Of a DNA stretch of 64,000 bases, positions 60,112 through 64,000 are shown in pieces. Below the pieces are notes generated by a model. That model saw nothing but the letters and a program-made list of their open reading frames with translations. It was not told the DNA's origin and ran no database searches. The DNA comes from Octopus vulgaris (taxonomy: Eukaryota). The position numbers and the translations under genes are program-made. The DNA lies in assembly GCA_951406725.2 (NCBI GenBank), contig OX597825.1:66526001-66590000 (forward strand), written 5' to 3'. The first letter of the stretch is position 1; every line of letters begins with the position of its first letter.

Positions 60112-60191
60112 ATCGTGAAGTATATTTGTCACTTAAATGTGGCTAACCCTTAAGGGTTAGCCAGATTTAGGTGGTAAATATACTTCACGAT
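60112..60191. repeat. 80-bp spacer-less palindrome (4 mismatches) derived from a pLTR end
   Basis: ATCGTGAAGTATATTTGTCACTTAAATGTGGCTAACCCTT|AAGGGTTAGCCAGATTTAGGTGGTAAATATACTTCACGAT; left arm matches 62404-62443. Confidence 0.85.
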
Positions 60192-60250
60192 GTCGTGCAG
60201 CTACTGTTTATACCTTGCTCAGAGATTTATTATTGCGCGTACACACACAC

Positions 60251-62402: not shown

Positions 62403-62614
62403 AAAGTATATTTGCTACTTAAATGTGGCTAACCCGTAAGGGTGTATGCTACTGTATCCCCAGGAGGACACCTTCTCCAGTTGGCTATTACACTTTCTGA
62501 GCCCTATCAGTATTTTCAAAGGGAAGCCATCCTTTCCATCTTCAATCTGACATGATACACACGGTCTCGAGTTTCTGGGTACTGACTCGTCATCAGCATT
62601 TGACAATCACCGGT
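62403..62614 (-). mobile_element. pLTR-like unit with C/A-type hammerhead relic (62561-62599), abutting (TA)n
   Basis: Minus ATG-CTGATGA-C-GAGT-CAGT-ACCC-A-GAAA-CTCGAG-AC-CGT; cleavage triplet mutated to GAC. Confidence 0.55.
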
Positions 62615-63740
62615 GTTTCTCTTTATTATGATAAAAATTATCATAGATAGAAGGGACGGAACAGGACACTTCAAACATTTAAAGGAGTTTTTTCTTTTAA
62701 AAATGTATTTATATGTTTTAAAAGTTAATTTGACTTCGTCCGACTTTCGGCTTGTTGTCCAGCGACTACACCTTACTTTTACCATTGGAGGGATTAAGAA
62801 GGGAAATTCATTCCCAACTTTCTTGCCACATCCTTGCATCTTTTCTCATACACGCTTTTCGACAGGTGCCTCTTCTTCAGCTCTATCTTACTTTTCAGTT
62901 GATACCTGAAGTATTGTAGCATTCCAGTGCCGGAGATGAAGGTTCCTGTCTTGATCCCTTGCATTCTAGTTCTCCATGCACACTCTTTATCACTGCAACT
63001 GTACATAGAAAACAAACCTCACCTTCGTTGGATATTCCAGTGGGCGGTACACTCTTAATCAGAGACTCAGCTGATTGGTTGAAATTACAGAAATACGATA
63101 ACTTTAAGATGAAATAGCTTCGTAAATATAAAGCTTTCTCAAAAATGCTAAGAGTAAAAGATGTTTTATATGACACATTCTACCAGTGTCCGCAGTTTGA
63201 AAGTGTTTAGTTACAAATAATTATTTTTTAAATCTGTAGGTCAAAAGGTAAAGATCCTCATGTTTATATACTTGAATAACTGTTCCTTTGAAACTTTAAT
63301 TTCATAGAATTGTCCACCTACGGCGACCAAAAGACTACTTCTCTTTGCTACTTCCTGTTTGCCTTGTTGATTTTCTTCCTGTAACAGCGGGAAATCCATC
63401 TCGCAGAGAAGGAAGTGTAGCCTTGCTGCCAATTCTCCCAATTTTTCAAAAATGGCCTGGTAACAATTTTCAGAAAAAAAATTAAAAAAAATTTCCCTCT
63501 AACGGGAACACAAAAACAGTTCACAAAAATTATTTTCTCCCTGCAACGGAGCACACAAAATAAAGAAAATAAAAACAATTTTCTGCGCTGCATGGCGAAA
63601 ATACCGTTAGTACGGCGTCCGAGGTTCGAATTTCAACAATGTAACAAGCAACCAAAAAAAAACCATTAACACTAAATTAACAATAACAAACTGATAACTC
63701 ACTAAGCAAAGCAGCAGCAAAACACAGACGAGCGTAACAC
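62615..63740 (-). mobile_element. Internally deleted Tx1/L1-like LINE: 5' UTR, probable ORF1 start (63399-63258), ORF2 C-terminus (63074-62794), 3' UTR; TSD ACCGGTGA
   Basis: ORF2 end SAESLIKSVPP...CFLCTVAVIK/ECAWRTRMQGIKTGTFISG...YFRYQLKSKIELKKRHLS...DVARKLGMN; 3' end AATAAAGAGAAA; TCACCGGT at 62607-62614 and 63741-63748. Confidence 0.65.
63067..63257 (-). mobile_element. One end of a MITE related to 28027-28440
   Basis: Ends GGTAAAGATCC (TIR); reverse complement aligns with 28027-28216 (ACTGGTAGAATGTG..ATAAAACATCTTTT, ATTTCAACCAATCA). Confidence 0.8.
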
Positions 63741-63748
63741 TCACCGGT

Positions 63749-64000
63749 TATTTCTTTATTAGAGGCACGAGGCTTAAACACAGAGGGGACATACACAGAC
63801 ATGCGGGAACAAAAAATACATGAATTAATGTAAAATGAATTAAATTACAATGAAGATGAGACGGTTTTCTCGGTCCCGCTCCGAGACGAAACCGTGATTT
63901 CTTTTTCTACAATTAAATCAACGTTCTTACAGTCTTTTTCTTTTTTCTGTATCGTTCTTTTTTTTCTTTTTTCTTTAAACTTTTCAACAACCTATTTTCC
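63749..64000 (-). mobile_element. 3' UTR of a second retroelement (probably Tx1-like LINE) continuing beyond the window
   Basis: Minus: purine-rich tract, GC hairpin CGGTTTCGTCTCGG...CCGAGAAAACCG, T-rich tract, then TGTCCCCTCTGTGTTTAAGCC...TAATAAAGAAATA directly before ACCGGTGA. Confidence 0.5.

Follow-up and report, generated by a model that had tools for sequence, protein, structure and literature searches.

The minus strand of the window, by which we mean the whole 64,000-nucleotide stretch analysed here (positions 66526001-66590000 of contig OX597825.1, within the 2.8-Gb genome of Octopus vulgaris), carries two stacked L1/Tx1-type retroelements, both inserted at a fixed site of a hammerhead repeat of about 360 nt. 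Insertion at this site is far beyond chance, and we are highly confident that the targeting of such repeats, which are retrozymes, is real. As for how sites are chosen, the lineage probably goes by the position of a Pol II promoter, and not by the ribozyme or by one fixed sequence.

At the upstream junction, AATAAAGA at 63760 is followed by ACCGGTGA at 63748. The downstream junction has AATAAAGA at 62627, then ACCGGTGA at 62614, with the hammerhead core CTGATGA at 62596 (Table 1). Both junctions and the core lie on the minus strand where the original prediction had placed them, and its reading of two successive insertions at one site is supported. The 8-bp target that it proposed has to be revised: the window shows a degenerate duplication of about 15 nt (12 of 15 positions alike, as read from the sequence), and in relatives the duplicated site extends to ...GTCAC.

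Table 1. Features of the stacked insertions, in positions of the window.
Feature	Positions	Strand	Remarks
Element 1, 3' UTR with AATAAAGA and 4-nt end	63749..64000	-	ORF1-only non-autonomous L1/Tx1-type unit
Target duplication, upstream copy	63734..63748	-	About 15 nt; 12/15 alike compared with downstream copy
Element 2, 5' UTR and ORF1 start	63260..63733	-	ATG at 63399
Element 2, ORF2 C-terminal remnant	62797..63119	-	Residues 1041-1148 of the open frame of an intact relative, 48-61% identity
Element 2, 3' UTR	62615..62796	-	Ends in AATAAAGA (62627-62620) and a short tail
Target duplication, downstream copy	62600..62614	-	Retrozyme family A sequence, about 9 nt past its predicted start
Type-I hammerhead motif, degenerate	62558..62602	-	Core 62596-62590, GAAA 62575-62572, triplet 62566-62564
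Remainder of retrozyme family A monomer	62404..62557	-	Terminates in (TA)n

Element 2 (63733-62615, minus strand) is an internally deleted L1/Tx1-type LINE. Its endonuclease and reverse transcriptase (RT) region is gone, and it retains the 5' UTR, the beginning of ORF1 and the final 110 or so codons of ORF2. Element 1 is an ORF1-only, non-autonomous relative of such LINEs, with a family unit of about 1.85 kb in relatives. Beyond the right edge of the window it continues as an ORF1 piece with a zinc knuckle, and an unrelated RT fragment then interrupts it, so that its far duplication is lost; within 17 kb to the right of the window we found neither this duplication nor an upstream retrozyme half. 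Both members of the stack are L1/Tx1-type, as proposed, but element 1 is a LINE relative without ORF2: its loci show ORF1 similarity in 17 of 30 cases, while ORF2 similarity is absent from all 30 and from 20 longer loci as well.

The ribozyme of the window is probably inactive, because it has GAC in place of the GTC cleavage triplet, together with mismatches in stems I and II. It had been proposed that this ribozyme could cut read-through transcripts of the LINE. A cleavage site is indeed predicted about 51 nt past the element end, but the window copy is mutated there. More fragments of retrozyme family A, without ribozyme, are present at 60112-60236 of the window.

In terms of protein domains, the ORF2 of an intact relative (L181) matches PF03372, PF00078 and PF13966 (APE endonuclease, RT and C-terminal zinc motif), and its closest solved structure is LINE-1 ORF2p (E 2e-67). 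The CCHC zinc knuckle of ORF1, PF00098, scores above its cut-off; such a knuckle in ORF1 is typical of Tx1. The elements are placed in the L1 group by this anatomy, that is, by domains and nearest structure. From the same anatomy we infer the Tx1 clade label, with no named Tx1 reference among the matches of the protein and Atlas searches, where the closest named protein match is from Argonauta. Of the original assignment to a Tx1 family, then, the L1-group anatomy, the target preference and the target duplication stand, and the clade label is putative. The preference goes beyond 20% of flanks being of one repeat type, which is the threshold given in the passages of PMC4494074 cited here. Many young copies keep full-length open frames. 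Head-to-tail arrays of 9 (G000:C9:59205622-59248704) and 6 (G000:C5:29180402-29207636) young LINE copies occur, with 5.28-kb spacing, and a metagenome scan gave one relative, at 27% identity. A 2026 repeat annotation of Octopus vulgaris lists 13 recently active L1-Tx1 families, and the words ribozyme, promoter and snRNA are absent from its accessible text (PMC13282606).

The target is an ORF-less type-I hammerhead repeat of about 360 nt, a non-LTR retrozyme, and most copies are empty. Family A is abundant (1592 first-look candidates, 40 scored) and has a monomer of 359 nt, with 362 nt in family F. Families B-F are related to it, with BLAST links A~C, C~E and C~F. The repeats are tandem, with a monomer of 150-450 nt and a type-I hammerhead, as is proper to retrozymes. 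With our own descriptor, the loci yielded 34 distinct type-I hammerheads and the reversed sequences yielded 0, and stems I and II covary across families, with changes on both sides. Cores are of the C3-G8 or the U3-A8 kind, and most copies have a short palindromic helix III; in family E there are two descriptor matches, with a weak stem I. Rfam detected no hammerhead at gathering and E-value thresholds, and the call rests on the descriptor and on covariation. These hammerheads match the type-I metazoan ones, with self-cleavage predicted from the sequence.

The repeat had originally been taken for a hammerhead-bearing Penelope pLTR. The hammerhead-bearing repeat is confirmed, but its identity as a pLTR is not: in 30 loci of one abundant autonomous Penelope family, the only one searched, no link between retrozyme and GIY-YIG ORF was found. 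Retrozymes are argued to derive from pLTRs in the cited part of a preprint (bioRxiv 10.64898/2026.07.22.740005), so the label is related and, for this repeat, putative. A very abundant GIY-YIG (Penelope-like) family (L208-L237; 16715 first-look candidates) has its own hammerhead-like motif and was not seen as an insertion target.

Three samples of loci were picked by element sequence, regardless of flank, and compared with a flank library that included the flanks of occupied B, E and F loci, which therefore count themselves. Among the best 30 of 43 matches to the element-2 3' end, 19 run directly into a retrozyme (A 7, including the window; B 2; C 6; D 4). The others comprise 2 at the A site, 1 in (TC)n, 6 of other kinds and 2 without a called end. 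For the element-1 3' end, 27 of the best 30 of 40 matches end at a retrozyme site, some of them being neighbours within one array. Here, 16 are in retrozyme A, 10 in tandem at the A site (including the window), 1 has the site only and 3 are of other kinds. Among these best matches the flanks are clearly non-random, which bears out the proposal of an L1/Tx1-type family that targets hammerhead-bearing repeats. The endonuclease search contributed 120 loci (119 of 138 matches and one from another search, with arrays yielding two): 52 end at a retrozyme and 2 in tandem at the A site; 2, from one array, are at U2, 11 are in repeat X, 12 are other tandem cases, 3 are in (TC)n, 22 are of other kinds, and for 16 no end was called. 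Searching the genome for the pattern turned up 46 matches, where the reversed control had 14.

Empty target sites exist. A LINE is found upstream in only 3 of 30 family-A copies, and in 1 of 20 for both C and D by script (two more D by eye). Relatives show two-sided duplications, mostly 14-20 nt long, in which the 5' flank is the upstream half of the repeat; this proves insertion into it. The L123 and L133 duplications were read by eye, and the duplication search in 20 older element-2 relatives returned mostly none or chance matches. Insertions are at fixed sites and in sense orientation in six retrozyme families. One fixed 8-bp target sequence, as first suggested, does not describe these sites, as the sequence at the cut varies among retrozyme families; the position is constant. 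The ribozyme itself is probably not the recognised feature either, since the lineage also inserts at U2 +1, at TATA-type sites and in (TC)n. Related LINE families in (TC)n, like Kibi, are represented by L204-L207 and L012.

As for the context of the insertion sites, one young lineage inserts immediately before U2 +1, with 2 of 25 U2 loci occupied. The word A(T/C)(C/T/A)AGT(G/C) is located at -56 to -60 in 27 of 30 U1 loci and 23 of 25 U2 loci. All 35 young retrozyme targets have this word (the -58 word) at -63 to -53, and none of 15 other targets does. In the upstream regions of retrozyme families A-F, it is the left arm of a short inverted repeat. Next, 6 of the 16 non-retrozyme classes have a TATA-like score of at least 6 bits at -34 to -26, where the background rate is 2.4% (6870 windows; binomial p 1e-6). 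Each class has one representative picked by eye, and (TC)n, tandem junctions and loci without duplication are left out. Nine control windows give 0-1 of the 16 classes. This pattern was first seen by eye and the weights of the score are approximate; in the six classes fetched after the idea had been noted, held out in this way, the permutation p is 1.8e-4 and the mirror control is negative. Young families insert 28-31 nt past the TATA-like box.

Two presumed RNA runs have contigs at L283 that part from the genome at a GT donor about 290 nt past the insertion, with little cover upstream of it among the matches listed. This is a weak hint that the 3' flank behaves as a spliced first exon, the RNA origin being presumed and the contigs not revealing starts. 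A multi-copy gene family with a TATA box and a spliced first exon of about 290 nt includes L159, L256, L283 and L162, and insertions recur at its 5' end. Two tandem repeats of about 500-590 bp (L251/L171/L172 and L192/L262), neither with an Rfam match, each have a clean TATA box that precedes the insertion site by 30 nt. Rfam returned nothing at 19 further target loci. A U6-type promoter was considered and dropped, as U6 genes show a TATA box and no clear -58 word.

The exceptions to the promoter pattern are repeat X (11 loci), L202 and L259, all without a TATA-like box, as well as the target of L275 and the (TC)n families. Repeat X (L175-L191, L285) hosts 11 array ends of the youngest family, and its downstream part resembles a Tx1-type 5' UTR. 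Neither a TATA box nor a -58 word was found in it, nor a match to a tRNA or in Rfam. With ARAGORN, 17 loci yielded no tRNA, and a tRNA-derived origin of repeat X thus has no support.

The window belongs to an older branch. A tree was built from the terminal 340 nt of ORF2 (125 rows, bootstrap not converged), and it groups element 2 with older copies in a clade of 26 rows (100/98) whose targets are in A, B, C and at unrelated sites. Counting by hand, we place the cut of the window branch and of element 1 at 37-39 nt past the TATA-like box for families A, C and D; in the young families the distance is 28-31 nt, so the window branch appears to use a second site, which would lie inside the predicted transcript by about 9 nt. 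Two of its older family-B inserts scatter, at 35 and 43 nt from the box (also hand counts). Six of the 30 loci of this branch have unrelated flanks, with a 5' junction that was not recoverable.

Some copies carry leaders that match other targets. In the U2-inserted copies, 14 nt lie between the U2 duplication and the element, one mismatch from the retrozyme duplication of the sister L291. The 5' end of L275 (G000:C15:21148558-21155558), which lies between two inverted U2 genes, equals nt 1-17 of U1 exactly, and its target shares only the first 6 nt. This tag implies a U1-inserted donor, which was not seen, with 0 of 30 U1 loci occupied by the element. Both leader tags start at the first base of the target, as would be expected if the element RNA begins at the host start site. 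Young copies have nested and differing pyrimidine-rich 5' extensions on a common core, as if leaders had accumulated over successive insertions.

Faithful subfamilies could be read as Tx1-type sequence specificity, where the endonuclease of each subfamily reads the short sequence of its own retrozyme family and the promoter link is incidental. A 27-copy clade is wholly in family A, the F-clade copies are in family F in 13 of 13 cases, and element-1 relatives are nearly all at one sequence; target choice by the endonuclease is also the standard view (PMC4494074, in its cited passages). We consider this rather unlikely, as one clade of the window branch is found in A, B and C despite different cut sequences, and near-identical copies are found at many unrelated sites that share only the TATA spacing. 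Moreover, few endonuclease differences separate the lineages (7 of 250 residues for U2 versus A and for X versus generalist, up to 21 of 250). Less probable again is that RNA-guided homing acts alone, with read-through flanks priming at homologous sites and promoter sites dominating since promoter-driven copies multiply. It would account for the leader tags, for the first 6 nt common to the donor flank in both target switches, and for L264 and L296, where the 5' duplication copy is of the common type and the 3' copy is a local variant. However, single insertions at unrelated sites keep the -30 TATA spacing with only 2-4 nt common to the donor, and in 22 of 33 A-site copies the two duplication copies are identical. 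Of the 11 that differ, two look donor-derived and age can explain others.

The ribozyme could also be a passenger, either as part of the LINE 3' end or within one LINE-retrozyme composite copied as a unit; in favour of this, copies of the F-clade elements differ very little from one another, and so do those of the F repeats. To this reading we give very little credence. Most retrozymes are empty, near-identical elements sit in different retrozyme variants with the variant matching on both sides, and the distal flanks differ. Empty sites and two-sided duplications largely refute it, and it would persist only for single young clades with common distal flanks.

We therefore return to promoter position as the preferred reading. 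A fuller scheme we regard as possible, if somewhat short of probable: the lineage would find snRNA- and TATA-type Pol II starts within a few bases, be transcribed from the captured promoter and inherit its start-site choice through host-derived RNA ends, so that it could switch among retrozymes, U1, U2 and ordinary genes with almost no protein change. For the preferred reading itself, we infer a mechanism from the observed sites, orientation, duplications, promoter-like words and tags, with predicted start positions. ORF2p would nick the template strand at the predicted Pol II start in young families, or about 9 nt further on in the window branch, with promoter-bound factors or open promoter DNA as its probable guide. 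Host-derived RNA ends would help to prime reverse transcription, and a second nick 14-20 nt on would lead to the target being rebuilt downstream; through this duplication, later copies could stack and the ribozyme would stay whole. The inserted copy would be transcribed from the upstream host promoter, and its host-derived RNA ends may pair with the next target, which would bias each lineage to the kind of site of its donor. An intact downstream ribozyme would end read-through RNA about 50 nt past the element, and such hammerheads work poorly as monomers according to the cited passages of PMC4209133.

These observations add ribozyme retroelements and, likely, Pol II starts to the target classes of site-specific LINEs. 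In the mostly open-access literature that was searched, Tx1 is reported neither in retrozymes nor at Pol II starts. Young copies have nearly the same proteins and different targets, which opens target switching in such elements to direct tests. For animal retrozymes, the insertions further indicate a probable promoter of U1/U2-like kind, and the accessible text of the retrozyme papers (PMC7229834; bioRxiv 10.64898/2026.07.22.740005) gives no promoter.

Finally, several known systems can be compared. The repeats agree with metazoan non-LTR retrozymes, which are tandem type-I hammerhead repeats of 150-450 nt (PMC7229834, cited part), and with metazoan hammerheads that have a short helix III, a palindromic loop and a U3-A8 core variant (PMC4209133, likewise). 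Unlike the published retrozymes, for which a word search of the accessible text of PMC7229834 and bioRxiv 10.64898/2026.07.22.740005 returned no promoter and no Tx1 insertion, those described here have a U1/U2-like upstream word and a TATA-like box. As for the elements, Tx1L in Tx1D, Tx1-Mar and Kibi/Koshi are likewise APE-type LINEs at a fixed site of another repeat, and a Kibi-like (TC)n-targeting relative also occurs here (compare PMC4494074). Neither a hammerhead retrozyme nor promoter position, the apparent target of our lineage, is among the targets named in the cited passages of that paper. Keno and Utopia also insert in U2 genes and stack in tandem; Utopia leaves U2 from nt 39 downstream and Keno has the same flank (PMC4640811, passages cited here). 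In contrast, the lineage described here inserts at U2 +1 and restores a complete gene downstream, with Rfam U2 model positions 1-192 following the element, and not a Keno-type flank from about nt 39. Lastly, Dictyostelium TRE5-A is also a non-LTR element placed by the transcription machinery and not by sequence; it is targeted through TFIIIC/IIIB and lands about 50 bp upstream of tRNA genes, as given in the cited passages of PMC3159450. Our lineage differs from TRE5-A in its predicted Pol II starts, its sense orientation and its carry-over of leaders.
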